The notes beneath the pieces are model-generated. The model was given only the letters and a program-made list of their open reading frames with translations, did not search any database and had not been told where the DNA came from. 64,000 bases of DNA from an uncultured Oscillospiraceae bacterium (lineage in GTDB: Bacteria > Bacillota > Clostridia > Oscillospirales > Oscillospiraceae), in the NCBI GenBank assembly GCA_947630785.1, contig CANRIW010000007.1:18-64017 (forward strand). Reading direction: 5' to 3'. Position 1 is the stretch's first letter; every line of letters begins with the position of its first letter. The translations under genes were made by a program, and so were the position numbers. Positions 61 to 49,072 of the stretch are shown here, piece after piece.

Positions 61-99
61 AGCGTCGGATCCGGCTTTCGCCGGATCCGACGCTTTTTG
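61..99 (+). terminator. Rho-independent terminator-like hairpin
   Basis: 15-bp perfect stem AGCGTCGGATCCGGC / GCCGGATCCGACGCT with a TTTC loop, followed by TTTTT. It lies just beyond the 3' end of buk, but the U-tract is on the plus strand, so it probably ends a gene left of the window. Confidence 0.6.
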
Positions 100-142: not shown

Positions 143-1243
143 TCAGCCTTTCAGATAGTCAAAGCCCTGGAATACGGGTACGCCGGTGTACTGCCTGACG
201 CTCTCCTCGCCCTTCAGGGCGCGGATGGCGCCGGCGGCCAGGGCCTCCATCTCAAATTCGCCCGCCTGGACGGAGATGGGGGCGATCCAGCCTACGTAAC
301 GGCTGAGTTCATCCACCAGATACTTATCATGGGCGATGCCGCCGGTGAAAATGATGGCGTCCACCCTGCCCTCCAGGACGGCGGCGCAGCCGCCTACCGC
401 CTTGGCCAGCTGGCGGATGAATGCGTCATACACCAGTTTGGCGTATTTGTCACCCTTGTTGATACGCTCCACGATTTCCCTGGCGTCGGCGGTGCCCAGG
501 TGGTCCACCAGACCGCCGTGCTTCATCACCCGGTCGATGAGCTCCTTCTCGGTGAATTGGCCGGAAAAGCTCATGCGGATCACGTCGGTGGCGGGGACCC
601 AGCCGGCCCGGGTGGGGGCCATGGGCCCGTCGCCGTTGAGGGCGTCGTTGCAGCAGCAGAGCTGCCCCTTCCGGTGGGCCGCCACCGACACGCCTCCGCC
701 GATATGGCAGCAGATGAGGTTCATATCCTCATACTTTTTGCCCTGAGAGGCGGCGTAGCGGATGCAGTTTTCCTTCTGGTTCAGGGGATGGCCCTTGCTC
801 TGGCGGAAGACCTCATGAAAGCCGGTGACCCGTTCCACGTCATCCAGCTCGTCCACGTCCGGGGGATTGACGCAGAACATCTCGCCCCCGTACCGCTTCT
901 GCAGCTCCAGGGCGATCTGCACGCCAAGGGTGTTGGGATGACGGGTGACGCAGGCCCGGGCGTCCCGCAGCATGATGTCGTTGATGGCGTACACACCGCT
1001 GACCAGACCCACCAGGCCGCCGCCCCGGGCGGCCCAGGCGTCCACCTGGGACAGGTCGATCCCCGCCGCCTCCACCTCCGCAAGGATGGTCTCCATGCGG
1101 AAGGGAAGCTGGTCGGCGATCTCCTTGAATTTTTTCAGCTCGTTGGCGTCGTGATCCACATTCTTCTGGAACAGCTTCTGATCGTCCTCAAACAGGGCGA
1201 TCTTGGTGGAGGTGGAGCCAGGATTGATGGCAAATATCCTCAT
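143..1243 (-). CDS. buk: Butyrate kinase (Buk/ASKHA family)
   Basis: 366-aa ORF. N-terminal INPGSTSTKIALF motif and full-length resemblance to clostridial Buk (remembered sequence). Starts 3 nt downstream of the pta-type gene. Confidence 0.9.
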   Translation of the reverse strand: MRIFAINPGSTSTKIALFEDDQKLFQKNVDHDANELKKFKEIADQLPFRMETILAEVEAAGIDLSQVDAWAARGGGLVGLVSGVYAINDIMLRDARACVTRHPNTLGVQIALELQKRYGGEMFCVNPPDVDELDDVERVTGFHEVFRQSKGHPLNQKENCIRYAASQGKKYEDMNLICCHIGGGVSVAAHRKGQLCCCNDALNGDGPMAPTRAGWVPATDVIRMSFSGQFTEKELIDRVMKHGGLVDHLGTADAREIVERINKGDKYAKLVYDAFIRQLAKAVGGCAAVLEGRVDAIIFTGGIAHDKYLVDELSRYVGWIAPISVQAGEFEMEALAAGAIRALKGEESVRQYTGVPVFQGFDYLKG

Positions 1244-1246
1244 GGG

Positions 1247-2245
1247 TCACTTGTTGTTCTGGGCGCGGACGCCGGCGATGGCCACATTGCCCACGATCTC
1301 GGACACGGGGGCGCTGCGGGAGCAGTCGCACACGATCTTCTTGAAGCCCTGGAGCACGGGGCCGTAGGCGTCGGCATGGCCGAAGATCTGCAGCAGCTTC
1401 ACGCCGATGTTGCCCACGTTCAGGTCGGGCCAGATGATGATGTTGGCCTTGCCGGCCACGGGGCTCTCCCGCTTGACCTTCTTGGCGGCCACGGCGGGGA
1501 CGATGGCGGCGTCCAGCTGGAACTCGCCGTCGATGGCGTAGGTGGGCCGCATCTGCCGGGCGATCTCCACGCCCTTGCGCACCTTGTCCACCAGCTCGCT
1601 CTCGGCGCTGCCGTCGGTGGAGTAGGACACCATGGCGCAACGGGGCTCCCAGCCCAGCAGATCCCGGGCGGTGTCGCAGGCGGACACGGCGATGGAGGCC
1701 AGGTCGGCGGGGTCGGGATTGACGCACACGGCGCTGTCGCCGATGATGAGCAGGTCGCCCTCGCTGCCGTTCCAGCCGGGGATCTGGGACACGCCGATGC
1801 TGGACACGGTGGTGACGCCCTCTTTCAGGCCCACGATGGTCTGGCCGCCCCAGATGACTTCGCCGGTGGTGTGGCTCATGCCGGCGAACATCACGTCCAC
1901 CTTGCCGATGGCCAGCATCATCAGGGCCACGTACATATCGTCCTTGGCCTTGCGGCGGATGGCCTTTGCGCTCATCTCGGTGTTGACCTCGCCGTAGGCA
2001 TTGAAGACCTCCTCGCAGGCGGCCTCATCGGTGGTGTCGAACACGGAGATGCCGGTCATATCGATGCCGAACTGGGCCACGGCGGCCTTGATCTCCTCGC
2101 CCTTGCCCACCAGCATGGGCTTGCAGATCCCCTGGGCGGCGCACTCCTGGGCCGCCTTCAGGATCTTCTCCTCGCCGATCTCGGGGAACGCCACGATCTG
2201 CGGATCGGCCTTGGCCTTCCGCAAAATCTCATCCATCATACCCAT
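1247..2245 (-). CDS. pta: Phosphate acyltransferase, Pta-type (phosphate acetyl/butyryltransferase family)
   Basis: 332 aa. The C-terminal DGEFQLDAA...AGKANIIIWPDLNVGNIGVKL...YGPVLQG region resembles short-form Pta rather than clostridial Ptb. GAGGAGG RBS upstream of the ATG. Confidence 0.8.
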   Translation of the reverse strand: MGMMDEILRKAKADPQIVAFPEIGEEKILKAAQECAAQGICKPMLVGKGEEIKAAVAQFGIDMTGISVFDTTDEAACEEVFNAYGEVNTEMSAKAIRRKAKDDMYVALMMLAIGKVDVMFAGMSHTTGEVIWGGQTIVGLKEGVTTVSSIGVSQIPGWNGSEGDLLIIGDSAVCVNPDPADLASIAVSACDTARDLLGWEPRCAMVSYSTDGSAESELVDKVRKGVEIARQMRPTYAIDGEFQLDAAIVPAVAAKKVKRESPVAGKANIIIWPDLNVGNIGVKLLQIFGHADAYGPVLQGFKKIVCDCSRSAPVSEIVGNVAIAGVRAQNNK

Positions 2246-2260
2246 GGCACATTCCTCCTC

Positions 2261-4027
2261 TCAGCGATAGGTGTAGTTGCCCGCCTTGTATTTGGGCGGG
2301 ATGACAGGGATCTGGAGATAGCTCTCGTACTGCCCGCCGGTGTGGATGATGTGCTGGCCGTGGTTGTCGGTCTCCCAGGTCAGCGGCTCGAACCAGCCCT
2401 CGCGGATGTAGCGGCCGGCCACCTCCACCCGGAGCTGCTGGCCCTTGTGCCAGATCCAGCTGGTGGGCACCAGGGCGATGTCCACGGGGACGATCTCGCC
2501 CTTCTGCAGCTTCAGCTCCCGCTTGTGGGACAGGACGGGCTCGAAATCGGTGGACAGCTTGGGATCCAGCTCCCGGTGGGACACGCGCAGCTTGCCCCAG
2601 GTGCCGGGGTGGGGCTCGCCCAGGATGCTGGTGGGCAGCCAGTTGCCGTCCTCATCCAGCTTCTTGATGGTGATGAACAGATCCATGTCGTCGTGACCGT
2701 CGGCTTCCACCCACATACGGAGCTTCATGTAGCCGGTGATCTCGGTGTCCTCCTCGAACTTGATGTCGAAGTTGACCTGCTCGGTGTTGGACTCGTAGCT
2801 GACCTTGCTCTCCACCGCGGGATTCTCCCAGTTCAGGGAGCCGTCGGCGGCGTTGAGGTACAGCTTCTTGTACTGGGTGCGGGCCAGGGGGAACTCCTTC
2901 TCGGGCCGGTCGGTCTGATAGTCGTAGTCGTAGGCGTCCATGACCTCGATGCGGTAGCGGGGGGTCATCTCGAAGCAGTTGTGGACGTCCTTCAGGAACC
3001 GGTCGTAGAAGTTCTTCAGGTCCATGGCGTGGGCGGTGTTGTACAGATCGGGCCACTCCTGCTCCCGGTGGGCGCGCATCCACTTCTTGGTGGAGCGGAT
3101 CTTGCGGAAGAAGTTGAAGGAGCCGTGGAGATGGAAGTGCTGCCAGGACGCGCAGGCGTACACGGGGATGCGGATCTTCTTGAAGTCGGGGATCTTGTCC
3201 TCCCAGTAGCCGTTCATCAGGGGATAGTGGCGGCCGTTCTCCACCTGGTCGTCGATCTTGTTGGGGCCGGTGAGGGAGGCCACGATGAACTCGTTGAAGC
3301 TCAGGGCCGGGATGCCGCCCTCGTAGATGGACTCGCGGTAGATGTCGCAGGTGGCCTCCCAGGGGGCGATGCAGGCCAGGTGGGGGGGCTGGGTGGCGGC
3401 GATGCGGACCTGGGTCATGGCCACGCAGGAGTTGCCGCCCATGCCCACCTTGCCGGAGCACCAGGGCTGCTGAGCGACCCACTCGATGAAGTCGTAGCCG
3501 TCCTGGGCGTCGATGGAGCCGAACATGTCGATGTCGCCCTCAGAATGGCCGGTGCCGCGGGGGTCGACGTTGGCGATGGCGTAGCCGTTATGGCACCAGA
3601 AGCCGGGGTCGGGGGACTCGAACTTGGCCATGGTGGAGATGGTGCCGGGGGCCACGCCCATCACCTGCCACTCGCTCATGCCGTCGCCGGGGCGCTTGCC
3701 GTAGTAGCTCCAGGAGATCAGCACGGGGACCTTCTCGGTGGTGTTGGGGCGGTAGATGTCGGTGTAGATCTTGGTGCCGTCCCGGAGGATGACGGGAACG
3801 TCCTGCTCGCAGATGAGGCCGTCCTCGGTCATATAGGTGCGCTGGTTGAACTTGGCGCAGAAGCCGTGGGCGGTGGAGGCGATGCCCTCCAGTTTGGACA
3901 GATCGAGACCTTCCTCGGGATCCACGGGGGTGCGGGCCTGGCGGTAGAAGACCTCGATCTCCTCCCCCTTCATGACCCTCTTCTCAGAGAAGATCTCGTG
4001 GCCGTTGGACATACCTTTGGATTCCAT
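2261..4027 (-). CDS. CocE/NonD family hydrolase (S15 X-Pro dipeptidyl-peptidase-like alpha/beta hydrolase)
   Basis: 588 aa. DPRGTGHSEG motif, nucleophile elbow GGNSCVA, and a long C-terminal beta-domain typical of the family. AAAGGAG RBS. Confidence 0.85.
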   Translation of the reverse strand: MESKGMSNGHEIFSEKRVMKGEEIEVFYRQARTPVDPEEGLDLSKLEGIASTAHGFCAKFNQRTYMTEDGLICEQDVPVILRDGTKIYTDIYRPNTTEKVPVLISWSYYGKRPGDGMSEWQVMGVAPGTISTMAKFESPDPGFWCHNGYAIANVDPRGTGHSEGDIDMFGSIDAQDGYDFIEWVAQQPWCSGKVGMGGNSCVAMTQVRIAATQPPHLACIAPWEATCDIYRESIYEGGIPALSFNEFIVASLTGPNKIDDQVENGRHYPLMNGYWEDKIPDFKKIRIPVYACASWQHFHLHGSFNFFRKIRSTKKWMRAHREQEWPDLYNTAHAMDLKNFYDRFLKDVHNCFEMTPRYRIEVMDAYDYDYQTDRPEKEFPLARTQYKKLYLNAADGSLNWENPAVESKVSYESNTEQVNFDIKFEEDTEITGYMKLRMWVEADGHDDMDLFITIKKLDEDGNWLPTSILGEPHPGTWGKLRVSHRELDPKLSTDFEPVLSHKRELKLQKGEIVPVDIALVPTSWIWHKGQQLRVEVAGRYIREGWFEPLTWETDNHGQHIIHTGGQYESYLQIPVIPPKYKAGNYTYR

Positions 4028-4042
4028 TCAGGTGCTCCTTTC

Positions 4043-4282
4043 TCAGCCGTCGATCAGCCCGCAGACAAAGTCGACGGCCTCGCCGATGGTGGCCTTGCGG
4101 CGGAAGTCCATGAAGGGGATCTCCACGTCGAACTCGTCCTCCAGCACGTTGATCATAGAGGAATAGTTGACGGACTTCATGCCCAGGTCGGCAAAGGCGG
4201 TGGCCTCGGTGTAGTCCTTCGCGCCCAGCATGGCGGTCAGACGCTCCACGATCTTCTCATAAACATTGGTACGCTCTTCCAT
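4043..4282 (-). CDS. Acyl/peptidyl carrier protein-like (PP-binding)
   Basis: 79 aa, acidic, four-helix-sized. Has DLGMKSVNYSSMI where the usual DLGxDSL phosphopantetheine-Ser motif sits. AGGAGG RBS. Confidence 0.65.
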   Translation of the reverse strand: MEERTNVYEKIVERLTAMLGAKDYTEATAFADLGMKSVNYSSMINVLEDEFDVEIPFMDFRRKATIGEAVDFVCGLIDG

Positions 4283-4352
4283 GATAAATGACCTCCTAAA
4301 AAATTTTTGGATTTATATCGATCTTATCAGATCACAAAAGAATGGGGCGCCA

Positions 4353-4919
4353 TCAGCGACGGCAGGGGATGGGCCTGGGCGGGCACCGGGGCTTGATGGC
4401 GCCGGCAATCACGATGGCGTCCTCCTCACAGGCCTCTTTGCACTTTCCGCACTGGGTACACTCGTTCTGGTCGATGACGTGGACGAATTTGGCGCGGCCC
4501 TGGATGGCGTCGTCCTCGCAGGCGTCCATGCAGTCGCCGCAGCCCACGCACTTGTCGGCCAGGATGTGGTAGGTGACGAACCGCTTGCACACGCCGGCCT
4601 TGCAGCTCCGCTTGGCGATGTGCTGGGCGAATTCGTCGGCGTACTTCTCCATCACCGCCAGGGCGGTATCGGCCAGCTCCACGCCGTCCTCGCACAGCGC
4701 CTGGGTCTTCATCAGGCCGCACAGCTTGCGCAGCTGGTCCATGTCGGTGCTGCGGCTCTTCTTCATGGTGATGTCGTTCAGGGTCATCTCCAGCTGGGCG
4801 GCGCCCTCATAGCCGAAGACGCACTTGCCGCAGTCCAGGCATTTGTGGCCCCGGACGTATTTCAGCAGCTCGTCCACGGGGCAGCAGGTCTCAGGCAGGT
4901 TCAGCAATTTTTCCTCCAT
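4353..4919 (-). CDS. Fe-S protein: NuoF-type 4Fe-4S binding motif plus 2x[4Fe-4S] ferredoxin domain
   Basis: Start chosen at MEEKLL (TGATG overlap with the upstream stop). Motifs CGKCVFGYEG, CVGCGDCMDAC and CTQCGKCKEAC. Confidence 0.75.
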   Translation of the reverse strand: MEEKLLNLPETCCPVDELLKYVRGHKCLDCGKCVFGYEGAAQLEMTLNDITMKKSRSTDMDQLRKLCGLMKTQALCEDGVELADTALAVMEKYADEFAQHIAKRSCKAGVCKRFVTYHILADKCVGCGDCMDACEDDAIQGRAKFVHVIDQNECTQCGKCKEACEEDAIVIAGAIKPRCPPRPIPCRR

Positions 4920-7051
4920 CACTCGCCACCTCCGTATTCGTTCCAGAGCTTTACCGTCTCCAGCTGGAGCCGGAGGTCGCACTGGAGGCAGCGCTGGGCC
5001 TCGCAGTGGGCCTGCTCGCAGGTGTAGGTCCGGTAGACGTTCTCGTCCCCGTTCTTGACACGGGTCTCCGGGTCGATGACGTCCATCTCCACCCGGGGCA
5101 GCGTCCCGAACCCCGGGAACTCCCCGATGTGGGGATCGGCCGTCCGCTCCACCAGCGTCTCCTCGATGTCTCCGTCGCCCCCCAGGTATTTGTCGATGAC
5201 GGAGGTCACCTCACGCCCCGACGCGATGGCCTTGATCACGAAGCTGATGCCCGTAATGGCGTCGCCCGCCGCGAAAATGCCCTCCACGCTGGTCTTGAAT
5301 CCGCTCTTGCCCGTCTCCGGGTCGATGGGATACCCCATCCGGTTCAGCTCGATGCCGAAGTTCTCGAAGTCCTGGAGACCGGTGTACTGGCCCGTGGCGA
5401 AGATGACGCTGTCGCAGGGAATGACAGTCTGGCTCCCCTCTACCGCCACCTCCGTCACCTTGCCGGTGGCCCGGTCATAGGTGGAGGACTTCACCGTGTG
5501 GACCCGGAGGCCGGTGACCTTCTCCTGGGTGCCCTCGATCTCCTCGAAGGAGCGGCCGGGCAGGATGTTCACGCCCTCCTCGGCCCCCTCCACCTGGTCC
5601 TCCTTGTCGGCCAGGATTTTGTCCGCCGGCTCGATGCAGGCCAGGTTCACCGTCAGGCCCTTCCGCACCAGGGACCGGGCCGCGTCGAACCCCACGGAGC
5701 CGCCGCCGATGACGCAGACGGTCTTGCCCAGGTAGGAGATATCCTTGTTCGCCCGCAGGTCGGCCAGCACGTCGATGGCGGTGTAGACCTGGTCGAAGTT
5801 GGCGCCGGGCAGGAAGCCCAGCTTCTTGCCCTTGGACACGCCCACCGCCACCAGCACGGCGTCGTAGTCCTTTTTCAGGGCGGCCACGTCGGAGACCTCG
5901 TGGTTCACCTCGTACTTCACGCCGGACTGGATGATGTAGTCGATCTCGGCGTTGACCCCCTCGATGGGCAGCCGGTAGGCCGGGATGCCGCTGGTCATGG
6001 GGCCGCCCAGCTGGGGACGCTTCTCCAGCACGGTCACGTCGTGGCCCAGCTTGTTCAGGTAGTAGGCCGCGGTGAGGCCGCAGGGGCCGGAGCCCACCAC
6101 CGCCACCCGCTTGCCGGTGCGGGGTTTCATAAAGCCCTTGCCCTTCCAGGTCTGTTCCTTGTCGTTCTCCACGGCGAACCGCTTCAAATTCCGGATGGAC
6201 AGGGGGTCGTTCACGTCGGTGCGCTTGCAGCCGGTCTCGCAGAGATGGTTGCAGATGTAGCCCAGGGTCAGGGGGAAGGTCAGCTTCTCCCGCATGATGG
6301 CCACCGCGTCGCCGGGCCTCCCCTCACGGACCGCCCGGATGTACTCCGGGATGTTGGTGTGAGCGGGACACTCGGCCCGGCAGGGCACCACGTTGTCGGC
6401 GTAGGCGGGATGCTTTTCCATCACGCCCACCGCGTCCACGATGGAGCCGGTGGGGCACACCTCGATGCAGGCCCCGCAGAAGCGGCAGCCCGCCTCCACC
6501 AGGCTCTTGCCCCCGGGCACCCCGGCGTGGACGCCCACGCCGTCCCGGATGTAGTCCAGCACCTTGACGCCCCGCAGGTCCTGGCAGGCGCGGATGCACC
6601 GGCCGCAGCGGATGCAACGGGTGAACAGGTGGGAGATCAGGGGATTGGAGTCGTTGTTGGGGACAGGGCGGGACTTCATGCGCCAGTCCTGCCCGTTGAC
6701 CCCCATGTACTGATAGAGGCTCTGCAGCTCGCACTTGCCGTATTTGGGGCAACCGGTACAGTCGGCGGGATGGGTGGCCAGCATCAGCTCCATGGAGGTG
6801 CGGCGGGTCAGCTCCGCGGCCTCGGTCCTGCTGTCCACCACCATGCCCTCGGCCACGGTGGTGGTGCAGGCGGGGACAGGCACGTCCCCGCCGTCCACCG
6901 TCACGCTGCACAGGCGGCAGCCGCCCTTGGCCTCCAGGTCAGGGTGGTCGCACAGATGGGGGATGTACACCCCCGCCGCCAGCGCCGCATGGAGGACCGA
7001 CTGCCCCTCGGCGGCCTGGATGACCTGGCCGTTGACAGTCAGCGTCACCAT
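4919..7051 (-). CDS. Fusion oxidoreductase: 2Fe-2S ferredoxin / NuoG-like 4Fe-4S N-terminus plus GltD/NfnB-like NAD(P)H-FAD module
   Basis: Start at MVTLTVNG. Motifs CDHPDLEAKGGCRLCSV, CIRCGRCIRAC and CRFCGACIEVC, then VAVVGSGPCGLTAAYYL and GGGSVGFDAA dinucleotide folds. AAGGTGGG RBS inside the upstream gene. Confidence 0.85.
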   Translation of the reverse strand: MVTLTVNGQVIQAAEGQSVLHAALAAGVYIPHLCDHPDLEAKGGCRLCSVTVDGGDVPVPACTTTVAEGMVVDSRTEAAELTRRTSMELMLATHPADCTGCPKYGKCELQSLYQYMGVNGQDWRMKSRPVPNNDSNPLISHLFTRCIRCGRCIRACQDLRGVKVLDYIRDGVGVHAGVPGGKSLVEAGCRFCGACIEVCPTGSIVDAVGVMEKHPAYADNVVPCRAECPAHTNIPEYIRAVREGRPGDAVAIMREKLTFPLTLGYICNHLCETGCKRTDVNDPLSIRNLKRFAVENDKEQTWKGKGFMKPRTGKRVAVVGSGPCGLTAAYYLNKLGHDVTVLEKRPQLGGPMTSGIPAYRLPIEGVNAEIDYIIQSGVKYEVNHEVSDVAALKKDYDAVLVAVGVSKGKKLGFLPGANFDQVYTAIDVLADLRANKDISYLGKTVCVIGGGSVGFDAARSLVRKGLTVNLACIEPADKILADKEDQVEGAEEGVNILPGRSFEEIEGTQEKVTGLRVHTVKSSTYDRATGKVTEVAVEGSQTVIPCDSVIFATGQYTGLQDFENFGIELNRMGYPIDPETGKSGFKTSVEGIFAAGDAITGISFVIKAIASGREVTSVIDKYLGGDGDIEETLVERTADPHIGEFPGFGTLPRVEMDVIDPETRVKNGDENVYRTYTCEQAHCEAQRCLQCDLRLQLETVKLWNEYGGGE

Positions 7052-7052
7052 A

Positions 7053-8531
7053 TCAGAAGCCCACCTTTGCCGCGGCGTTTTCACCGGCGATGCGGCCGGA
7101 GTTCAGGCAGAAGCCCATGGTGTTGCCGGACAGCACGAAGGGATAGGAGTCGCCGTAGATGGAGCAGGCGTCGGTGCCCACGCAGTACAGGCCGGGGATG
7201 GGACGGGCGTCCTCGTTCACGGCCTCCATCTTGTGGTTGATCTTCACGCCGCCCAGGGAGCCGTAGGCGCCCACGGTCTGGCGGCAGCAGTAGAAGGGCC
7301 CCTTCTCGACCTTCTGCATATAGGCGCGGTTCTTCTCGAACAGCTCGTCGTAGCCGGCGTCGCACATGGCGTTGTACTCCTCCACCTGAGCCACCAGGCC
7401 GTCCACGTCGATGCCGGCGTTTTTGGCCAGCTCCTCGATGGTGTCGCCCTGGGCGATGGGCTCGTAGCCGGCGGCCAGATCCCGCTCCCACTGCTCGTCG
7501 AAGTGGTCGTACAGGTCGTGGGGATGGACGTGGGAGATGATGTCAGGCCCGTGCTTCTTATAGCGCTTGAGGGCCTTGCTGTCGAAGATGGAGAAGGCCA
7601 CCTTGCCGGGGAGGTGGGAGATAGCGTTGCCGGTGAAGGTGGTGTTGCCGATCTGATCCTCGGGCATGAAGCGGTTGCCGTTGCGGTCTACCCACAGGCA
7701 GGGCTGACGGAAGGCACCCTCGATGATGAAGTGGTTCATGTTGTCAGGCAGCTGGTACATGATCTCCATGATGATAGGGGTCTTGGCGGCGCCCGCCTCC
7801 CAGCACATCTTCATGCCGTCGCCCTTCATGCCGGGCACGGCGAAGTTGAAGATGGTCTTGCCGAACTCGAAGCCGGTGTACTCCTTGATCATCTCCGGGT
7901 TGTCGCCAAAGCCGCCGGTGGCCACGATGGTGGAGGGCGCGCGGCACTCGATCTCCTCGCCGCTCTTGTCCACGGCGACCACGCCCACCACGGCGCCGTC
8001 CTCCTGGATGAGCTTCTTCACGGGGGTCTCCAGATAGAACTCCACACCCAGGCTCTGGGCGTACTCGGTCATCTTCTTCATCATGCCGGAGGCGGCGCGG
8101 GGGCCGGGAACGCCGCCGCCCTCGGGCTTGCAGACGTGCCAGGTGAACTCGCCGTCAGAGTAGGGGCGGGTGGCCTCGTCCGCGCCGAAGGCCCGCTGCA
8201 CGCCCACGAACTCCACGCCCATGTTGCACAGCCAGTCGATGGTGTCGCCGGACTTGAAGTAGTAGTCCCGCACCAGGCGGGGGTCCACATGGTAGTGGGT
8301 GAAATACATGTGCTTGCGGAAAGCCTCGATGGGGCTCAGGGGGATCATGTGCTCACGCTGGATGCGGGAGCCCACGCCCAGGGGGCCCATGCCCATGTTG
8401 GCGGCGCCGCCGGTGGTGCTGGCCTTCTCAAAGCAGACCACTCGGGCGCCCCCCTCGGCGGCGGCGCAGCAGGCGGCCAGACCACTCAGGCCCGCGGCCA
8501 CGACGATGACATCGGTTTCCAGTTGCTTCAT
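7053..8531 (-). CDS. FAD-dependent oxidoreductase, fumarate reductase / urocanate reductase / KstD-like (FAD_binding_2)
   Basis: 492 aa. N-terminal DVIVVAAGLSGLAAC GxGxxG, a central capping domain, and C-terminal GLYCVGTDA. AAGGAGG RBS. Confidence 0.85.
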   Translation of the reverse strand: MKQLETDVIVVAAGLSGLAACCAAAEGGARVVCFEKASTTGGAANMGMGPLGVGSRIQREHMIPLSPIEAFRKHMYFTHYHVDPRLVRDYYFKSGDTIDWLCNMGVEFVGVQRAFGADEATRPYSDGEFTWHVCKPEGGGVPGPRAASGMMKKMTEYAQSLGVEFYLETPVKKLIQEDGAVVGVVAVDKSGEEIECRAPSTIVATGGFGDNPEMIKEYTGFEFGKTIFNFAVPGMKGDGMKMCWEAGAAKTPIIMEIMYQLPDNMNHFIIEGAFRQPCLWVDRNGNRFMPEDQIGNTTFTGNAISHLPGKVAFSIFDSKALKRYKKHGPDIISHVHPHDLYDHFDEQWERDLAAGYEPIAQGDTIEELAKNAGIDVDGLVAQVEEYNAMCDAGYDELFEKNRAYMQKVEKGPFYCCRQTVGAYGSLGGVKINHKMEAVNEDARPIPGLYCVGTDACSIYGDSYPFVLSGNTMGFCLNSGRIAGENAAAKVGF

Positions 8532-8575
8532 AGTGTTTACCTCCTTAAAACTAACATATATGATAATTAAATCGC

Positions 8576-9523
8576 TTACACAGTTTTGTACTTCATTTCC
8601 TTATAGCGGGGCATCTTTTCCTTGACGATCTCGAAGTTGTGGGGATCGCGGTAGAAGCTGCCCTCGGTGGTGCCAATCTCGTCCAGATGGAGGCCGCGGC
8701 CCGCCACGGTGGTGCGGTCTTTCAGGTGGCCGTTCTCCGGGTCGATGACGAACTTCCACTTGCCGTCCTCTTCCTTCAGCACGCCGCCGCAGCCGCACAC
8801 CTGGCACTCCACCTTGTAGTAGGTGCCGTCCCACTGGGGTTCGCCCAGGGACAGGGAGTTGGAGTGGCAGTGGGGGCACCAGCCGAAGTCGGGGTCGCCC
8901 TCCCAGCCCCGGTCCTTGGGATCCTTGCTCAGGGAGCGCATGATGTTCTCACCCATCTTGTGGGCCCGCTCGATGAGGTCGGGCCGGGTGAGCACATGGC
9001 CCTTGGCGGGGACGCGGGTGGCCAGGATCATGTCCACCACGTTGAAGTCGCAGGTGAACATGGCGGCCTGCATATTCTCCAGGGACATGGACATCCAGGC
9101 GCGGGTGGAACCGCCGGTGGTGATCAGGCCGGCGATGCGGTGCTTGGGCTTGATGGCGCCGATCTTCTCCAGGAAGGCGGTCTCATAGGCCAGGGAGCGC
9201 TGCATGAACCGGGTGAAGTTGGCCGAAACCTGCAGATCGTAGGTGGGAGCGGCGAAGATGAACGCGTCGTTCTCGAACATGGCCTGCATCAGCTTGTCTT
9301 TGTCGTCCAGGTTCTTCAGCACGCAGCCCACGTTCTCGCCCTTCATGAACATCCCCTGAGTGCAGTGGGTGCAGCCGGTGCAGTCGATGATCTTGTAGTC
9401 GCTCAGGTTGACGTAGGTGATCTCCGCCCCCAGCTCCTGGCAGGCCAGCAGAGCCTCTTTTGTCAGGATCTCGCTGTTGCCGTCCTTGCGTCCTCCGCAG
9501 ACGCCCATCACTTTGAATGCCAT
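8576..9523 (-). CDS. Flavodoxin-fold FMN reductase / iron-sulfur flavoprotein (Isf)-like with C-terminal Cys4 zinc-ribbon-like extension
   Basis: 315 aa. Compact Cys motif CTGCTHC...C near the N-terminus. NADPH-dependent FMN reductase-like core. C-terminal CPHC...CQVCGC. AGGAGG RBS. Confidence 0.8.
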   Translation of the reverse strand: MAFKVMGVCGGRKDGNSEILTKEALLACQELGAEITYVNLSDYKIIDCTGCTHCTQGMFMKGENVGCVLKNLDDKDKLMQAMFENDAFIFAAPTYDLQVSANFTRFMQRSLAYETAFLEKIGAIKPKHRIAGLITTGGSTRAWMSMSLENMQAAMFTCDFNVVDMILATRVPAKGHVLTRPDLIERAHKMGENIMRSLSKDPKDRGWEGDPDFGWCPHCHSNSLSLGEPQWDGTYYKVECQVCGCGGVLKEEDGKWKFVIDPENGHLKDRTTVAGRGLHLDEIGTTEGSFYRDPHNFEIVKEKMPRYKEMKYKTV

Positions 9524-9628
9524 AATACTACCTCCTGTGTTTTTGTCGGAGGCCCGGCAAAAGCCGCGCTCCTATGTTTGTGGGCCGCCCCTGTGCGGCC
9601 AAATGACACGCGAACCAAACAGCCGTCC

Positions 9629-9687
9629 AAAAAGAGAACGGGCGCCGGGAACTCCGGGCGATTTTTCCACCCCGGCCTCCGGCGCCC
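9629..9687 (-). promoter_or_regulatory. Terminator-like element inside the 5' leader of the redox/ACP/buk operon (candidate attenuator or riboswitch expression platform)
   Basis: On the minus strand: GGGCGCCGG ... CCGGCGCCC (9-bp outer stem, inner CCGGG/CCCGG stem) followed by GTTCTCTTTTT. It lies between a putative -10 box and the first start codon at 9523. Confidence 0.3.
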
Positions 9688-9777
9688 TGTCCACGCTGTG
9701 GACACCGGTAAACCGTGAGTTATATCTACAAAAAACGGGATTCTGCCGTGCCCCTTTGTGCAAACTATTCAATTAAG

Positions 9778-9783
9778 ATTATA
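9778..9783 (-). promoter_or_regulatory. Putative -10 box (TATAAT) for the 9523->143 operon
   Basis: TATAAT on the minus strand within the only AT-rich stretch upstream of the operon. The -35 is weak (TGACGA-like, 17-nt spacer). Confidence 0.3.
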
Positions 9784-9870
9784 ATTCTCTTTGCCGGTTT
9801 CGTCATCCGACAGCAGTCAAATGCTTTTCAAATAATTGCCCACTATTTCCGACAAAAGTCTAATAAACGC

Positions 9871-11130
9871 TCAGACGGTCTCCTCCCGCTCCTCATAGTC
9901 CCCGGAGAAGCGCTCCAGGTAATCCAAAAGCCGGAAGGAGAACTCATAGTCGAACAGCCGCTCCCCGTCGTGCATCAGGTCGGTCCCGACCAACTCCGAT
10001 ATTTTTCCCATGCGGAAAAAAAACGTGCTCTTGTGGATAAACAGAGCGGCGGCGGCCCGGGCCGAGCTCCGGTTTTCCTGCAGGAACGCCCGGATGGTGT
10101 CCATGTAGTGGCTGTCGTGTTCTCCGTCGTACCGGCGGAGCAGTTCGATGTCCGGGTGGATCATGGTCCGCAGATGCTCTGCGTCCCCCGCCCGGGAGAA
10201 CAGGTGGAAGAGATGGGACCTGGCGTAACCTCCCAGCCGCTCACCCTTTGGCAAGGCTTCCAGCGCGGCCTTGGTCTGCTCCCAGGCATAGCGTGCCATG
10301 GTCAGAGAGGTGAAGCGGTAGCTGAACGCCGCCCGCATCTGATTGAACTCCAGGAATTTTCCCAGGGCCACCGCCTCCTGATCGCTGAGCGGCGCGATCC
10401 CGCTTCGGGGCAGCAGCATACACATCCGCCCGTGGACGATGCCCACAAGACACCCGGGAAACATGGCCTGGAGCTGGTCAAAGAAATAACTTCCGGAGGG
10501 TCGGGTGCTCACGTCGTCAAAGGTGAATTCCGCCAGAAAATAATAGCGCTGCGGCTGGATCTTGAGCTGCCGTAGCCGCTGTACGGCGAACTGGTCGCCT
10601 TTGAGCCGGCCCTCCAGCAGCTCCGAGAGGAAATACTCATATTTCACGCCGCTCTCAGTGGCAAAGAAGTCCTGCTTCTGCATCTCGATGGAGAGGACCT
10701 GAGACAGATATTCGACCAGATCCAGCTCCTCGGGGAAAAAGCCCTCCGGCCGCCCGGGGGAGAAGATGTAGGCCACCATGGCCTGATTGATGCGGATGGA
10801 CTGGAACAGGATGGGGCAGGGGAAGCGCGGATCGGTGGACACGCTGGGCCGGGTGCTTTCCAAAAGGCGCTTCACGTGCCGCTTTTCGTCCATCTCCAGG
10901 GTCACGCCGAAGCGCACGAACTGCCGTCCGCCGGAGGTGACCAGGTTTTTCTCGTCGTCAATGTCGGGACAGGTGGCCAGCACCGCGAAGCTGGAGCTGC
11001 ACAGGCTGAACTGCAGGCCGGTGGCGTCGTGGGCGATCTGCAGGAACTGCCGCAGCTGGGTCTTGGTCTGCAGGGCCCGGAACAGCTCATCCTTGGCCCG
11101 CCGCAGCCGCTCTGGGGTCATCCGTTCCAT
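9871..11130 (-). CDS. PucR/CdaR-family transcriptional regulator
   Basis: Start chosen at MERMTPE (GAGGAG RBS). C-terminal PucR-type HTH (RSSARAAAALFIHKSTFFFRMGKISELVG). Located immediately upstream of the operon on the same strand. Confidence 0.8.
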   Translation of the reverse strand: MERMTPERLRRAKDELFRALQTKTQLRQFLQIAHDATGLQFSLCSSSFAVLATCPDIDDEKNLVTSGGRQFVRFGVTLEMDEKRHVKRLLESTRPSVSTDPRFPCPILFQSIRINQAMVAYIFSPGRPEGFFPEELDLVEYLSQVLSIEMQKQDFFATESGVKYEYFLSELLEGRLKGDQFAVQRLRQLKIQPQRYYFLAEFTFDDVSTRPSGSYFFDQLQAMFPGCLVGIVHGRMCMLLPRSGIAPLSDQEAVALGKFLEFNQMRAAFSYRFTSLTMARYAWEQTKAALEALPKGERLGGYARSHLFHLFSRAGDAEHLRTMIHPDIELLRRYDGEHDSHYMDTIRAFLQENRSSARAAAALFIHKSTFFFRMGKISELVGTDLMHDGERLFDYEFSFRLLDYLERFSGDYEEREETV

Positions 11131-11268
11131 CCGACTCGCTCCTCTCTTGTTTTTCGGGAACAGTTTATCACGCTTTGCCCGCGGTTTCAAGCCCTTCCCG
11201 CTCCTTCCGCGCTTGACAGCCGACCCCGTTCTGTGCTACCATCTTCAAAAAGCCAAGGGGGAGTCGGC

Positions 11269-12096
11269 ATGGGCGGACTGAGCCACAGAGAGGTCATGGA
11301 GGGCGTGTTCCACATCGGGGATGGACGGGGAAATTTCTGCACCCTTCTGGTGGGGAGCGCTGGCGCCATCCTTTACGACACCATGATGGGCCTGGGGGAC
11401 CTGCGGGCCTATGTGGCCGGCCTGACCGGCTTTGTGCCCATGGTCATCAACAGCCACTGCCATTTCGACCATGTAGGTGGTAACTTCCAGTTCGAACGGG
11501 TCTATATGTCGGAGGCCGACTTTCCATTGATGGAGATGGGCCTTGACGAGCTGCCCATCCTGGAGGAGACCCAGGGGATGGATTTTTCCTATATGGTGCC
11601 CAATTTCGCGGACAAGGACCGGGTCCATCCCATTGCCCCCGGCACGGTCGTCGACCTGGGCGGCCTGACCGCCGAGGTCATCGCCCTGCCCGGCCACACC
11701 CCCGGCAGCCTGGGCCTGCTGATTCCGGAGAGGAGCCTCCTGCTGGCCGGGGACGCCGTCTCTCCCCAGGCGTGCCTTTTCTTCCCGGAGAGCTCTCTGG
11801 AGGACTACAAAAAGACTCTGGAAATGCTGAAAGGCGTGCCTTTTGACCACTTCCTGCTGGCCCACTTTGACTACCTTTTCCCGAAATCCAAGCTGGACCG
11901 CTTTGCCCAGTGTCTGGACCTCATCGGCAAAAAGCGCAGCCAGGAGTACGTGTTTTTCCCGATCCCGACCTTGTGCGGCCGCCTGTTTGTGCTGGATCTG
12001 GCCGACCCCGACACCGGGGAATTGGTAGGTATCTTTGTCAAGAATTCCGACGCGGGGCGGCAAGGAAACCAATCTTTTCGCCCGAAGCGCGCATAA
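11269..12096 (+). CDS. MBL-fold metallo-hydrolase
   Basis: Start at MGGLSHRE (AAGGGGGAG RBS). HCHFDH metal motif, and LPGHTPGS downstream. Confidence 0.8.
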   Translation: MGGLSHREVMEGVFHIGDGRGNFCTLLVGSAGAILYDTMMGLGDLRAYVAGLTGFVPMVINSHCHFDHVGGNFQFERVYMSEADFPLMEMGLDELPILEETQGMDFSYMVPNFADKDRVHPIAPGTVVDLGGLTAEVIALPGHTPGSLGLLIPERSLLLAGDAVSPQACLFFPESSLEDYKKTLEMLKGVPFDHFLLAHFDYLFPKSKLDRFAQCLDLIGKKRSQEYVFFPIPTLCGRLFVLDLADPDTGELVGIFVKNSDAGRQGNQSFRPKRA

Positions 12097-47845: not shown

Positions 47846-49072
47846 TCAGGGCTTGCGGATGAGCAGGTTCAGCACCAGGGCCGCCACCGACAGACACAGC
47901 AGCAGGATGAAGGGGGCGATATACCCGCCGGAGGAGGTGAGCAGGGCGCTGGAGGCGGTGGCCATGAAGGAGGCACCCATCAGGTTGAAGTTCATGATAG
48001 AGAAGTTGGTGGGGAAGTACTTGGTGCCGTAGAAGGCGGAGGTGAAGGCGGAGGTGACGGTGGGGCAGGAGCCGTAGGACAGGCCGGTGAGGCACAGGCC
48101 CACGATGCAGAGGGGCAGGGAGTGGACCAGCACGGCCACCAGGGTGATGCCGGCGGCGGCGATGGTGAGGATGTTGGCGGCCAGCATGGTCATCCGGCGG
48201 CCCAGGGAGTCGAAAAACGCGCCGGTGAGGATGCGGCCCAGGCCGTTGCACACCGACAGGACGCCCACCAGCACGGTGGCCAGCTCCAGCGTGGCGCCCA
48301 CGGACTGGGACAGCTGGCTGGCGAAGCTGATGACCGAGTTGCCCACGGCGGCCAGGAAGATGATGCACACGAAGGCCATCCAGAAGGAGGGACGGCGGAT
48401 CATTTCCACTGTGGTGTAGTCCTTTGGCTCAAAGCTCTCGCCGCCGGCCGCGGCCTTGGCCTTGGGCTGGGGGAACTGGGTGCCCTCGGGAGGCTTGCGG
48501 AGGACCAGGCCGGCGATGACCAGCACCACGCCCAGGGAGATGCCCAAAAAGCGGAAGGCGAACCGCCAGCCGATGTCGGCATTGCGGATGAAGGAGCCGG
48601 CCAGATTGCCCAGCACCAGGGCGGAGGCGCCGAAGCCCATCAGCAGCACGCCGGAGCAGAGGCCCTTCTTGTCGGGGAACCAGGCGCTGACGGTGGAGAG
48701 AATCACGTTGTAGGCAAAGCCGATGCCGGTGCCCGCCATGATGCCGTAGAACAGGTACAGCAGCACCACGCTGGAGCCGGACAGGGTGGAGGTCAGCACC
48801 AGGCCGGCGGCGGCGATGAGGCCGGCCACGATGATGGACACGGCCACGCCCAGGCGCTTGCTCAGGATACCGGCCAGAAAGGCGCCGATGCAGAAGAAGC
48901 ACATGGTCAGGGTGAAGTTCAGGGCCATGTTGTTGGCGGCCCAGCCGAACTCGGCCTCCAGGGGGGCGCGGAGGATGGACCAGGCGTAGATGATGCCGGC
49001 GAACAGCATGGCGGCCGTGCCGATGACCAGATAGAGCCAGCGAATGGACAGCTTTTGGGTGGAGTTGTTCAT
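47846..49072 (-). CDS. MFS transporter, oxalate/formate antiporter (OFA)-like
   Basis: Start at MNNSTQK (GAGGTG RBS 6 nt upstream). 12-TM pattern with a central hydrophilic loop. Confidence 0.8.
   Translation of the reverse strand: MNNSTQKLSIRWLYLVIGTAAMLFAGIIYAWSILRAPLEAEFGWAANNMALNFTLTMCFFCIGAFLAGILSKRLGVAVSIIVAGLIAAAGLVLTSTLSGSSVVLLYLFYGIMAGTGIGFAYNVILSTVSAWFPDKKGLCSGVLLMGFGASALVLGNLAGSFIRNADIGWRFAFRFLGISLGVVLVIAGLVLRKPPEGTQFPQPKAKAAAGGESFEPKDYTTVEMIRRPSFWMAFVCIIFLAAVGNSVISFASQLSQSVGATLELATVLVGVLSVCNGLGRILTGAFFDSLGRRMTMLAANILTIAAAGITLVAVLVHSLPLCIVGLCLTGLSYGSCPTVTSAFTSAFYGTKYFPTNFSIMNFNLMGASFMATASSALLTSSGGYIAPFILLLCLSVAALVLNLLIRKP

Follow-up and report, generated by a model that had tools for sequence, protein, structure and literature searches.

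The published flavonoid route employs flavone reductase (FLR), chalcone isomerase (CHI), an enoate reductase and phloretin hydrolase (Phy) (PMC7862272, PMC10470551); the structure of FLR from Flavonifractor plautii, cited in PMC7862272, is PDB 7D38. Phloroglucinol is fermented to acetate and butyrate (PMC10470551). Here we analyse a 64,000-nucleotide stretch of a contig from an Oscillospiraceae bacterium (the window), which carries genes for flavin and Fe–S redox proteins followed by genes for a carrier protein (ACP), a CocE/NonD-family alpha/beta hydrolase (HYD), a Pta-type phosphate transacylase and a butyrate-kinase-family acyl kinase (Buk-like). The genomic context indicates that this is most probably an operon for the catabolism of plant flavonoids in an uncultured gut bacterium. 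We found no description of the ACP–HYD–Pta–Buk module in the searchable literature.

Genes were called as open reading frames with their translations, and families were assigned with Pfam and NCBIfam profiles, which reproduced all nine family assignments of the first-pass annotation. Eight genes run co-directionally on the minus strand from 9523 to 143; the ninth that had been counted in this run is the PucR-family transcriptional regulator (9871–11130, minus strand; HTH_30 46 bits, GGDEF_2 27 bits), which lies 347 nt from the first gene, as claimed earlier. Recomputed intergenic distances of 44, 1, −1, 70, 15, 15 and 3 nt match those reported exactly, the overlap being a TGATG in which the start of the NuoF-type Fe–S gene overlaps the stop of the GltD-like fusion gene. 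The whole gene order is repeated in three related Oscillospiraceae MAGs (L001, L003 and L004), with the eight structural proteins 78–99% identical and PucR 60–75% identical, and two partial contigs (L002 and L005) agree with it as far as they extend. Because modules of the locus are, in addition, found again in many other genomes, we conclude that the arrangement is not due to chance.

A perfect 14-bp hairpin seen directly in the sequence (GCGTCGGATCCGGC-GAAA-GCCGGATCCGACGC; 62–93, minus strand), 50 nt past the Buk stop, is a possible end of the transcription unit. Past that stop, the window diverges from L001 and L002; the contig given for HYD protein P0001 is 64,060 nt long, which puts the presumed end of the window's contig close to the Buk-side edge of the window. 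Divergent from PucR is a gene for a metallo-beta-lactamase-fold protein (11245–12096, start codon uncertain, plus strand; Lactamase_B 65 bits). Its homologues lie after Buk in L006 and after Pta in L018, and it is a recurrent accessory of the module.

The interval between PucR and the operon (9524–9870, minus strand) had been described as AT-rich and structured. Its GC content is 0.53, lower than the 0.6–0.69 or so of adjacent 500-nt bins, and it is more stably folded than shuffled sequences (z = −3.2). Consensus scanning places a sigma-70-like −35/−10 site at 9806–9778 and gives none in the 70-nt gap, where an internal promoter had been suggested. A terminator-like hairpin lies at 9641–9623 inside the structured leader, and the interval has no family match in Rfam. 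An AcpS gene occupies this position in L003 and L004, but not in the window, whose interval contains no AcpS remnant.

We then surveyed the neighbourhoods of 80 HYD loci. The carrier gene adjoins HYD in 72 of them, Pta-like and Buk-like genes are present in 64 and 63, respectively, always co-directional with HYD, and AcpS is present in 48. PucR lies beside this core in at least 36 loci and is divergent in 33 of those, whereas in the window it is on the same strand as the operon. The conserved unit is carrier, HYD, often AcpS, Pta-like and Buk-like proteins, usually with a divergent PucR, and is spread over Clostridia, Coriobacteriia, Bifidobacterium and Desulfobacterales; its commonest form, PucR | ACP-HYD-AcpS-Pta-Buk-MFS, is self-contained. 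The earlier view of nine genes as one conserved block does not hold, as the redox half occurs in only about 20–33 loci, in varying position and orientation; its genes are a movable accessory of the acyl core.

The first protein of the redox half (8576–9523, minus strand; FMN_red 46 bits) had been called Isf-like. Its FMN_red domain was confirmed, but it belongs to the FLR family, as a paralogue of flavone reductase. It matches 7D38 over its full length (E = 9e-29). Its Cys motifs, CX2CX2CX12C and, in a C-terminal subdomain, CX2C...CX2C, are both conserved, as are the equivalents of the substrate-contacting FLR residues His271 and Ile275. At 29% identity to FLR, it may reduce another substrate. 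True FLR orthologues (57–73% identity) directly adjoin HYD/Pta/Buk in twelve other HYD loci, and a separate, FLR-seeded search independently recovered a locus of this kind (L089).

The next protein, the soluble FAD_binding_2 reductase FADb2 (7053–8531, minus strand; PF00890 182 bits), has vinylphenol reductase VprA as its top NCBIfam match (304 bits, under the cutoff of 600) and flavocytochrome c fumarate reductase and urocanate reductase as PDB relatives. It is 88–99% identical in L001, L003 and L004, and 74–78% identical in nine HYD loci outside the window's lineage (L007–L009, L011, L012, L014, L018, L021 and L031). We regard it as a candidate ene-reductase of chalcone or hydroxycinnamate type. 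The fusion of an N-terminal 2Fe-2S/NuoG-like Fe–S part to a GltD-like FAD/NAD(P)H oxidoreductase (4919–7051, minus strand; Fer2_4, NADH-G_4Fe-4S_3, Fer4_Nqo3, Fer4_20 and Pyr_redox_2; NF009410 391 bits, below cutoff), whose gene comes after that of FADb2 in 21 loci, is presumed to be the electron-input subunit. The NuoF-type protein (4353–4919, minus strand; NADH_4Fe-4S (PF10589) 49 bits and two Fer4) joins the NuoF C-terminal 4Fe-4S domain to a 2x[4Fe-4S] ferredoxin, and longer versions (363–519 aa) occupy the same position in other loci.

The first-pass annotation had emphasized the redox half as a respiratory-like terminal reductase system serving an unnamed electron acceptor, the acyl half then being a branch that conserves energy on its own. 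The presence of fumarate and urocanate reductases among the relatives, and of a multi-Fe–S electron-input module, is consistent with this. Nevertheless, we consider it highly improbable: the locus encodes no membrane- or quinone-linked component, FADb2 has no apparent signal peptide, given an FAD-binding motif at its very N-terminus, and the reductases are always accompanied by an FLR-family pathway enzyme. Reduction of the flavone or chalcone double bond is a required pathway step, though an electron sink too, and cytoplasmic pathway ene-reductases with NAD(P)H/Fe–S input look likelier.

The window also contains a complete phloroglucinol-degradation operon (47846–54488, minus strand), identified by Pfam, NCBIfam and tblastn. 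It encodes a cupin (54141–54488), a PGR-type SDR (53304–54098), a TfD-type 3HCDH (52362–53288), a DPGC-type cyclase (51312–52325), a TAL-type BKACE (50385–51233), a Mem_trans protein (49138–50094) and an MFS transporter (47846–49081). The four-enzyme signature agrees with that characterised in Clostridium scatologenes (PMC10470551), and five of the genes are 45–72% identical (tblastn) to the same five beside HYD modules elsewhere. In eight other loci, the phloroglucinol pathway is fused to the module, and in the sister genome L003 it follows Buk directly. As the window's contig presumably ends just after Buk, a CHI for this operon is deduced from its relatives: L001, L002 and L005, with HYD 97–99% identical, have a CHI gene downstream of Buk, whose product (PF18232 184 bits) shares 68% identity with the CHI next to FLR in F. 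plautii. Other recurrent neighbours of the module are OYE/Fcr-like reductases, DUF1097, acetoacetate CoA-transferase and 2-hydroxyacyl-CoA dehydratase sets. The relatives' locus offers a candidate for each published step except phloretin hydrolase; HYD is not of the family to which known phloretin hydrolase belongs. The first-pass annotation had left the substrate unnamed; the FLR-family first gene, CHI in close relatives and the phloroglucinol operon in the window make a flavonoid the most likely one. Three loci (L040, L071 and L074) have HYD homologues without ACP, Pta or Buk yet beside FLR-like and FADb2 genes, which ties HYD itself to the pathway. No flavonoid genes lie within 10 kb of the Coriobacteriia, Oscillospiraceae and Bifidobacterium cassettes, whose substrate may differ.

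We turn to the acyl half. The 79-aa phosphopantetheine carrier (4043–4282, minus strand; PP-binding 29 bits, cutoff 21) falls below the cutoff of every NCBIfam ACP equivalog, and its Ser37, within a [K/R]-S-V motif, is invariant (39/39). HYD (2261–4027, minus strand; TIGR00976 232 bits, cutoff 66; Peptidase_S15, PepX_C) has as its nearest structure 3ib3/3iii, of unknown function; its G-N-S200 aligns with the CocE nucleophile Ser117 and is invariant (58/58), as are His297 and His299. By prediction, HYD forms an acyl-enzyme from which the carrier is loaded. The Pta-like protein (1247–2245, minus strand; PF01515 (PTA_PTB) 290 bits) is under the pta equivalog cutoffs. Catalytic Ser309 and Arg310 (Methanosarcina thermophila numbering, as below) are invariant (58/58), and the equivalents of Arg87 and Arg133, which govern CoA affinity (Km) in the M. 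thermophila enzyme (PMC6461089), are substituted in 57 of 58. It is predicted to convert acyl-S-carrier and Pi to acyl phosphate, from which the Buk-like kinase (143–1243, minus strand) would, with ADP, yield acid and ATP.

The Buk-like protein scores like an ordinary butyrate kinase (TIGR02707 409 bits, above the equivalog cutoff of 289). This would also suit a scheme in which HYD simply hydrolyses its substrate, acetyl- or butyryl-CoA from phloroglucinol breakdown feeds Pta and Buk, and the carrier serves another role; the acetate and butyrate of phloroglucinol fermentation fit such use, and FLR/CHI clusters without HYD have Ptb and Buk, with 2-oxoacid:ferredoxin oxidoreductase. We think this very improbable. 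Carrier and HYD are fused in 10 loci, in one clade and sometimes with tandem carriers (ACP-ACP-HYD in L077), and again in L089; AcpS is dedicated to the module in 48 loci; the Pta-like enzymes systematically lack the CoA-affinity arginines; and the four genes move as a cassette without a CoA-ester-producing enzyme. The proposal that a carrier-bound acyl group is converted by Pta and Buk to ATP is, by the fusions, the in-cluster AcpS and the altered Pta, the most economical reading, and the catabolic nature of the locus is supported.

Building on the observed gene content, homologies, synteny, fusions and residue patterns, we propose the following scheme. The FLR-family ene-reductase would convert flavone or flavonol to flavanone, and FADb2 would reduce chalcone to dihydrochalcone or turn hydroxycinnamate into phenylpropionate, with electrons passing from NAD(P)H through the two Fe–S proteins, one with a GltD-type FAD/NAD(P)H site, to both reductases. 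HYD Ser200 would attack phloretin or a closely related intermediate of acyl-phloroglucinol type, releasing phloroglucinol and leaving an acyl-enzyme, and the acyl group would be moved to the carrier's phosphopantetheine thiol rather than to water. Phosphorolysis by the Pta-like enzyme and the Buk-like kinase would then give ATP and a free phenylpropionic-type acid, while phloroglucinol would be consumed by the operon at 47846–54488. For this explanation as a whole, we judge the chances to be even. Context leads us to favour, with some confidence, carrier-centred transfer in this direction; our assignment of the cleaved bond and substrate is tentative.

The Pta and Buk reactions are reversible, and the relay could in principle run backwards, spending ATP to attach a free aromatic acid to the carrier, by analogy with FakAB/PlsX, for thioester reduction or for acyl transfer or condensation by HYD, then an acyltransferase or thioesterase. 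Activation ahead of ene-reduction is known, as with caffeoyl-CoA in Acetobacterium, and reductase genes adjoin in 26 loci. However, the minimal cassette lacks a reductase or acceptor-forming enzyme, fermenters do not usually spend ATP unless a CoA-transferase-type recycling loop is in place, and the neighbours (PucR/LysR regulators, phloroglucinol degradation) are catabolic. To our knowledge, FAD_binding_2 reductases characterised to date use free acids. We therefore regard reversal as quite improbable.

The tentative part, the C–C bond, has a more serious competitor, although still an unlikely one, in which the relay is unchanged and HYD is a transacylase moving the acyl group of an energy-rich ester to the carrier. 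CocE/NonD enzymes are classically esterases, some being acyl-transferases such as alpha-amino-acid ester hydrolases, and candidates would include hydroxycinnamoyl-quinate (chlorogenic acid), 1-O-acyl sugars, acylated flavonoid glycosides and tannin depsides. FADb2 would next reduce the freed hydroxycinnamate, in keeping with its match to vinylphenol reductase, of hydroxycinnamate metabolism; in 14 loci, Abh3/BD-FAE (feruloyl-esterase-like) genes are part of the module or its neighbours, a hint of ester substrates, and the minimal cassettes of Bifidobacterium and Coriobacteriia lack flavonoid genes. Ester cleavage nevertheless leaves the recurrent FLR, CHI, Fcr-like and phloroglucinol-pathway neighbours unexplained, ATP synthesis is beyond the energy of ordinary alkyl esters, and genes handling quinate, shikimate or sugars are not recurrent beside the module.

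The proposed C–C-cleaving relay has precedents: PlsX interconverts acyl-ACP and acyl phosphate, and catalysis by alpha/beta C–C hydrolases, BphD for example, passes through an acyl-serine. The thermodynamics are tight. PhlABC-type acyltransferases can make acyl-resorcinols from thioesters, so thiolysis would be uphill and would need the pull of phloroglucinol removal and acid export. In the known pathway, phloretin hydrolase uses water on the same type of C–C bond; if the scheme is correct, the relay would serve in its place and conserve energy.

The genes listed in the first-pass annotation are all present on the minus strand, and Pfam and NCBIfam searches of the open reading frames reproduced every family call. 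Downwards from a PucR regulator (9871–11130), the locus encodes an FMN_red protein originally labelled 'Isf-like' (8576–9523; FLR-like below, after flavone reductase, FLR), a FAD_binding_2 reductase (7053–8531), a fusion of 2Fe-2S/NuoG-like and GltD-like parts (4919–7051), a NuoF-type Fe-S/ferredoxin protein (4353–4919), a 79-aa carrier protein (4043–4282), a CocE/NonD-family hydrolase (HYD; 2261–4027), a Pta-like enzyme (1247–2245) and a Buk-like kinase (143–1243). Spacings of 44, 1, −1, 70, 15, 15 and 3 nt, and a 347-nt interval behind PucR, follow from these coordinates. What had been counted as nine genes plus PucR is eight genes, with PucR as the ninth. The PucR protein has the PucR/CdaR architecture, with HTH_30 (46.1 bits) and GGDEF_2 (26.8 bits) both above the Pfam cutoff. 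Purine or uric acid catabolism, considered because of PucR and YgfK-like hits of the GltD fusion, was rejected: all NCBIfam scores were under cutoff and the signature genes were absent.

The 347-nt leader (9524–9870, minus strand) had been described as AT-rich and structured, and its GC content is indeed lower than that of its surroundings; it also has a steadier fold than shuffled controls (z = −3.2). A consensus scan placed promoter-like −35/−10 elements at 9806–9778, and downstream of these a terminator-like structure at 9641–9623 consists of an extended stem rich in GC with a run of U residues behind it; the leader may act as an attenuator. No Rfam family reached the gathering threshold in the leader, the sole match being a meaningless snoRNA (E = 0.07). 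The internal promoter suggested for the 70-nt gap at 4283–4352 found no backing, as the same kind of scan, a weak test, shows no sigma-70-like site there. At the other end of the locus, the match to the closely related loci L001 and L002 (96–99% identity) ceases right after the Buk stop codon. A perfect 14-bp hairpin lies past that stop at 62–93, where the window contig apparently ends, since the HYD protein P0001 is recorded on a contig of 64,060 nt. In the two relatives (L001, 13886–14000) another hairpin of terminator-like form stands there, together with a promoter-like TTGCAT...TACAAT site, and genes for an MFS protein and chalcone isomerase (CHI) come next. Divergent from PucR is a plus-strand metallo-beta-lactamase-fold gene (11245–12096), homologues of which (39% identity) follow Buk in locus L006 and Pta in L018; its product may assist the module, perhaps by hydrolysing a thioester or a lactone.

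We then surveyed the distribution of these genes. At a threshold of E ≤ 1e-10, HYD has 3,284 relatives in the database; the 120 that rank highest share 65–91% identity with it, and their source names say only 'CocE/NonD family hydrolase' or 'predicted acyl esterase'. With one genome taken per GTDB species, 221 HYD loci were obtained and the best 80 were kept. By its 99% identity to L001, the window can be placed in an uncultured Oscillospiraceae lineage of the rabbit gut. Because a simple ORF caller chose antisense ORFs in GC-rich loci, presence was called by tblastn with the nine window proteins. Among the best 80 of the 221 loci, a carrier protein lies beside HYD in 72, a Pta-like gene in 64 and a Buk-like gene in 63, in every case in the same direction as HYD. 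The FMN_red protein was found in 33 of the 80, the FAD_binding_2 reductase in 26, the GltD fusion in 21 and the NuoF-type protein in 20, with the position and orientation of these four redox genes varying; the PucR gene is mostly divergent from the module. As the acyl genes are frequent and the redox genes variable, the nine-gene block that had been treated as one unit is, as a whole, lineage-specific, and it is the acyl half that forms the conserved core.

Hosts of the core include Lachnospiraceae, Oscillospiraceae, Coriobacteriia (Slackia, Collinsella, Olsenella), Bifidobacterium, Desulfobacterales and Dehalococcoidales. The commonest sampled variant, P0097 (loci L081–L083), is an identical 589-aa HYD that turned up in 256 sample blocks. 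Its contigs mostly measure 5–10 kb, some of them about 8 kb, and the minimal cassette reads PucR, then carrier-HYD-AcpS-Pta-Buk-MFS. Because its neighbours are a DDE transposase, or a phage-type integrase with an IS605-like gene, in differing genomic contexts, the data suggest that this cassette is mobile. No flavonoid gene lies within 10 kb of the minimal cassettes found in Coriobacteriia, in Bifidobacterium and in Oscillospiraceae from ruminants, and these may act on another substrate.

The carrier scored 29.2 bits against PF00550 (cutoff 20.8), and its Ser37 is invariant in 39 of 39 sequences. It scored at best 34.9 bits against the NCBIfam acyl_carrier equivalogs (cutoff 66), which places it outside the AcpP group of fatty acid synthesis, and its motif is [K/R]-S-V rather than the D-S-L of AcpP. 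Of the 80 loci, 48 have an AcpS gene (PF01648; 125–190 aa) within the cluster, mostly between HYD and Pta, and this dedicated AcpS marks the carrier, as far as sequence can tell, as a genuine 4'-phosphopantetheine protein. In the 64-kb window itself tblastn found no AcpS; the search was also blank for a decayed copy in the 347-nt interval, though loci L003 and L004 hold AcpS there. Ten Lachnospiraceae loci encode carrier and HYD as one protein, with the carrier at the N-terminal end and several of them in the tandem form ACP-ACP-HYD; L089 is an independent case of fusion. In L077, L075, L069, L078 and L080 some HYD proteins have two tandem carrier domains before the hydrolase domain, connected by linkers rich in Ala and Pro. 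Elsewhere, such tandem arrangements are characteristic of PKS and PUFA synthases with high flux.

HYD itself is a Peptidase_S15 plus PepX_C protein (TIGR00976, 232.5 bits, cutoff 66.3; PF02129, 144 bits; PF08530, 116 bits). Its G-N-S200 aligns with Ser117 of CocE and with the Ser of 3ib3, and Ser200, His297 and His299 are invariant in 58 of 58 proteins, the Asp of the triad being ambiguous. Even where carrier, Pta and Buk are missing (L040, L071 and L074), the HYD homologue adjoins FLR-like and FAD_binding_2 genes.

The Pta-like enzyme belongs to the PF01515 superfamily (290 bits) and lies below the Pta equivalog cutoffs, at 252 bits for TIGR00651 (cutoff 311) and 268 bits for NF007233 (cutoff 310). 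The catalytic Ser309 and Arg310 (Methanosarcina thermophila numbering) are invariant in 58 of 58 sequences, and the equivalents of Arg87 and Arg133 are replaced in 57 of 58, by Val and Trp in the window protein, each Arg being kept in a single sequence. Mutating Arg87 or Arg133 in the Methanosarcina enzyme chiefly raises the Km (PMC6461089); their loss is the pattern to be expected for a thiol substrate without the nucleotide part of CoA. The Buk-like kinase clears TIGR02707 (409 bits, cutoff 289.1) and NF002834 (414 bits, cutoff 222).

The FLR-like protein (315 aa) matched one solved structure, and did so over its full length: 7D38 (phmmer, E = 9e-29, residues 4–289 on 2–281), which is the flavone reductase of Flavonifractor plautii. 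Its architecture agrees with that described for FLR, in which a WrbA/FMN_red-like domain at the N-terminus is joined to a C-terminal 'tail' (PMC7862272), and its length with the roughly 310 aa of the family. At 29% identity it is a distant FLR paralogue. The equivalents of the FLR residues His271 and Ile275, which contact the substrate, are His279 and Ile283, and they are invariant in 32 of 32 and 29 of 32 FLR-like proteins near HYD modules, respectively. The Isf-like motif C48-x2-C51-x2-C54-x12-C67 is invariant in all FLR-family proteins examined, including FLR itself (7D38), as is a second motif, CX2C...CX2C; no Isf-specific NCBIfam model matched the window protein. Neither an Fe-S cluster nor zinc is reported in the paper on FLR, which does not discuss the Isf-like cysteines (PMC7862272). 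FLR may have a metal centre that serves physiological electron input. Because FLR in vitro needed free FMNH2 from an added flavin reductase (PMC7862272), and because the Cys motif is conserved, the adjacent GltD- and NuoF-type Fe-S proteins are plausible physiological donors for FLR-type reductases.

The idea that the locus feeds a flavin reductase and conserves an acyl unit as ATP was partly supported, and it can be made considerably sharper. True FLR orthologues (57–73% identity) lie directly beside HYD, Pta and Buk in 12 other HYD loci. In L001, L002 and L005, whose HYD is 97–99% identical to that of the window, an MFS gene and a bacterial CHI follow Buk; this CHI (PF18232, 184 bits) shares 68% identity with the one encoded beside FLR in F. 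plautii. Since the window contig apparently ends after Buk, a CHI in the window strain is predicted from these relatives. About 40 kb from the acyl/redox locus, the window contains a complete phloroglucinol-degradation operon (47846–54488, minus strand) that encodes a cupin, a PGR-type SDR, a TfD-type 3HCDH, a DPGC-type cyclase, a TAL-type BKACE, a Mem_trans protein and an MFS transporter. The four pathway enzymes occupy 50385–54098, next to the cupin, and have the PGR-DPGC-TfD-TAL signature characterized in Clostridium scatologenes (PMC10470551). In eight other loci the phloroglucinol genes and the HYD module are physically linked, and in the sister genome L003 these genes directly follow Buk. 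Because NCBIfam models for the phloroglucinol-pathway enzymes, CHI and FLR do not exist or do not pass, these assignments rest on Pfam, synteny and published work, and the specificities are predicted.

Other recurrent neighbours of the module are Fcr/EnoR-type enoate reductases (OYE/Fe-S), membrane proteins with DUF1097, which are found beside FLR in Clostridium carboxidivorans too, and an acetoacetate CoA-transferase with a thiolase. Abh3/BD-FAE esterases recur as well. These esterase-like neighbours, together with the history of the CocE/NonD family, lend some weight to an ester rather than a C–C bond as the target of HYD, a reading that we regard as unlikely; the cleaved bond is one that we infer from genomic context only. 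PHB oligomers, acyl-carnitines and simple alkyl esters were set aside as substrates on energetic grounds, and the neighbourhoods offered no evidence for them.

We tentatively favour cleavage of a C-acyl bond in a flavonoid-derived intermediate. The published route runs from flavone to flavanone (FLR), flavanone to chalcone (CHI), chalcone to dihydrochalcone (an enoate reductase or Fcr) and dihydrochalcone to phloroglucinol and 3-arylpropionate (phloretin hydrolase, Phy) (PMC7862272, PMC10470551, PMC13515148). The window lineage has a candidate for each step but the last, and the carrier-HYD-Pta-Buk genes appear to occupy that place; we therefore propose a relay. FLR-like and FAD_binding_2 proteins would perform the two double-bond reductions, with NAD(P)H as the source of electrons and the GltD-type flavoprotein and Fe-S proteins as the path to the reductases. 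Ser200 of HYD would attack the aryl-ketone (a beta-triketone tautomer) of a phloretin-type intermediate, freeing phloroglucinol, and HYD would hand the acyl group to the carrier thiol. The Pta-like enzyme would phosphorolyse the acyl-carrier, and the Buk-like kinase would yield ATP. There is precedent in PlsX, which converts acyl-ACP to acyl phosphate, and in alpha/beta C–C hydrolases such as BphD, which use an acyl-serine. By our own estimate, the thiolytic cleavage of an acyl-phloroglucinol probably has an unfavourable standard free energy, so that a pull by phloroglucinol use and acid export would be needed. The sequences would also allow the relay to run in reverse and consume ATP, which we consider improbable. 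The most far-reaching form of the proposal, to which we give rather less than even confidence, is that the module would represent a new, mobile and widespread type of substrate-level phosphorylation, in which a serine hydrolase 'thiolytically' cleaves a polyphenol-derived C-acyl or other energy-rich acyl bond onto protein-bound phosphopantetheine to yield ATP without CoA, and that it would replace Phy in flavonoid degraders.

Neighbourhoods seeded with FLR gave a further view of acyl harvesting. In these, 2-oxoacid:ferredoxin oxidoreductase, Ptb and Buk genes occur in C. carboxidivorans, in L091 and, partly, in F. plautii; Ptb-Buk alone lies beside FLR in Parasporobacterium paucivorans, and L089 has the carrier-HYD-AcpS-Pta-Buk set beside FLR. 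Kinases of the Buk family thus belong to the usual gene content of flavonoid loci. Because two ATP-yielding sets occur beside FLR/CHI, the acyl fragment looks as if it can be harvested in either of two ways, the carrier-based module being one.

Several side observations concern the same loci. The FLR/CHI loci L084–L087, L088 and L091 contain the set of 2-oxoacid:ferredoxin oxidoreductase, Ptb and Buk, which fits a branch from arylpyruvate to arylacetyl-CoA to ATP, that is, the DOPAC route from flavonols; we know of no description of such a set at FLR/CHI loci. An LVIVD-repeat protein of 449–459 aa, encoded beside FLR and CHI in L084 (3842–5221; F. plautii) and L087 (6876–8225; C. carboxidivorans), is a candidate for an as yet unassigned step in flavonoid breakdown. 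In L036, L065 and L072 the module is followed by a 2-hydroxyacyl-CoA dehydratase (two HGD-D subunits and a BcrAD-type activator) and a family-III CoA-transferase. This set resembles phenyllactate dehydratase, which by analogy suggests that aryl-lactates from flavanonols are processed further, and it agrees with a published account of aryl-lactates as products of flavanonols (PMC11170127).

The chemistry of Pta and Buk is already known, as are FLR, CHI and phloroglucinol degradation. What we believe to be new is the module of carrier, CocE/NonD hydrolase, AcpS, Pta-like and Buk-like enzymes, and the proposal that the locus is a flavonoid-catabolic operon with predicted CoA-independent substrate-level phosphorylation. 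Full-text literature searches, in one of which 'CocE/NonD' was perhaps not matched as a phrase, returned no description of this module, and a review of August 2026 still names only FLR, Fcr and phloretin hydrolase. If the proposal is correct, scission between the C-ring and the A-ring becomes an ATP-yielding step in flavonoid degraders, anaerobes gain an added route of substrate-level phosphorylation, and a large orphan clade of CocE/NonD 'hydrolases' acquires a concrete function. A CoA-independent, carrier-based harvest of ATP would explain how common such genes are, with more than 3,000 homologues of HYD, and the GltD- and NuoF-type Fe-S proteins are nominated as the physiological electron donors of FLR-type reductases. 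The conversion of dietary flavonoids to phenolic acids in the gut is linked with host health, and to our knowledge its bond-breaking step is at present ascribed to a single hydrolase family.

The closest known system is the flavonoid pathway of F. plautii and Eubacterium ramulus. An FLR-family reductase and an ene-reductase step are encoded in the window as well, near-identical relatives have an orthologue of CHI, and phloroglucinol is the predicted product, with its operon in the window. The two differ in that a carrier, CocE/NonD hydrolase, Pta and Buk stand in the logical place of Phy, no gene of the Phy type (DAPG-hydrolase family) having been noticed at the locus or among the annotated recurrent neighbours, and in that the ene-reductase is a FAD_binding_2 protein with Fe-S partners rather than an OYE/Fe-S enzyme of the EnoR/Fcr type.

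With Pta-Ack and Ptb-Buk the module shares an adjacent, co-directional phosphate transacylase and ASKHA acyl kinase and the catalytic Ser-Arg pair. Here, however, a Pta-type rather than Ptb-type transacylase accompanies a Buk-type kinase, the arginines that govern the Km for CoA are gone, and the predicted thiol substrate is protein-bound phosphopantetheine, not CoA. An acyl phosphate between a carrier-protein thioester and a kinase is known from PlsX/FakAB in Gram-positive lipid metabolism, and this chemical logic is shared; the module uses the PTA_PTB and butyrate kinase families instead of PlsX and FakA/B, has a dedicated carrier with its own AcpS, lies in a catabolic context and is predicted to run towards ATP.

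HYD shares its fold, its Peptidase_S15 and PepX_C domains and the position of its Ser nucleophile with CocE/NonD enzymes such as cocaine esterase, alpha-amino-acid ester hydrolase and SACOL2612 (3ib3/3iii), but has the motif G-N-S-x-V where these have G-x-S-Y-x-G, is obligately paired or fused with a carrier, and is predicted to use a thiol rather than water as acceptor. Enzyme- or carrier-bound thioesters also serve catabolism in citrate lyase and malonate decarboxylase, and glycine reductase leads from a thioester through an acyl phosphate to ATP. The bound thioester is common to all of these; the module differs in that its prosthetic group is ordinary 4'-phosphopantetheine added by AcpS instead of 2'-(5''-phosphoribosyl)-3'-dephospho-CoA, and in that no selenoprotein takes part. 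Finally, the sets of 2-oxoacid:ferredoxin oxidoreductase, Ptb and Buk, while CoA-dependent, oxidative and free of carrier or CocE/NonD enzyme, have in common with the module that they are a second ATP-yielding acyl module riding with FLR and CHI.
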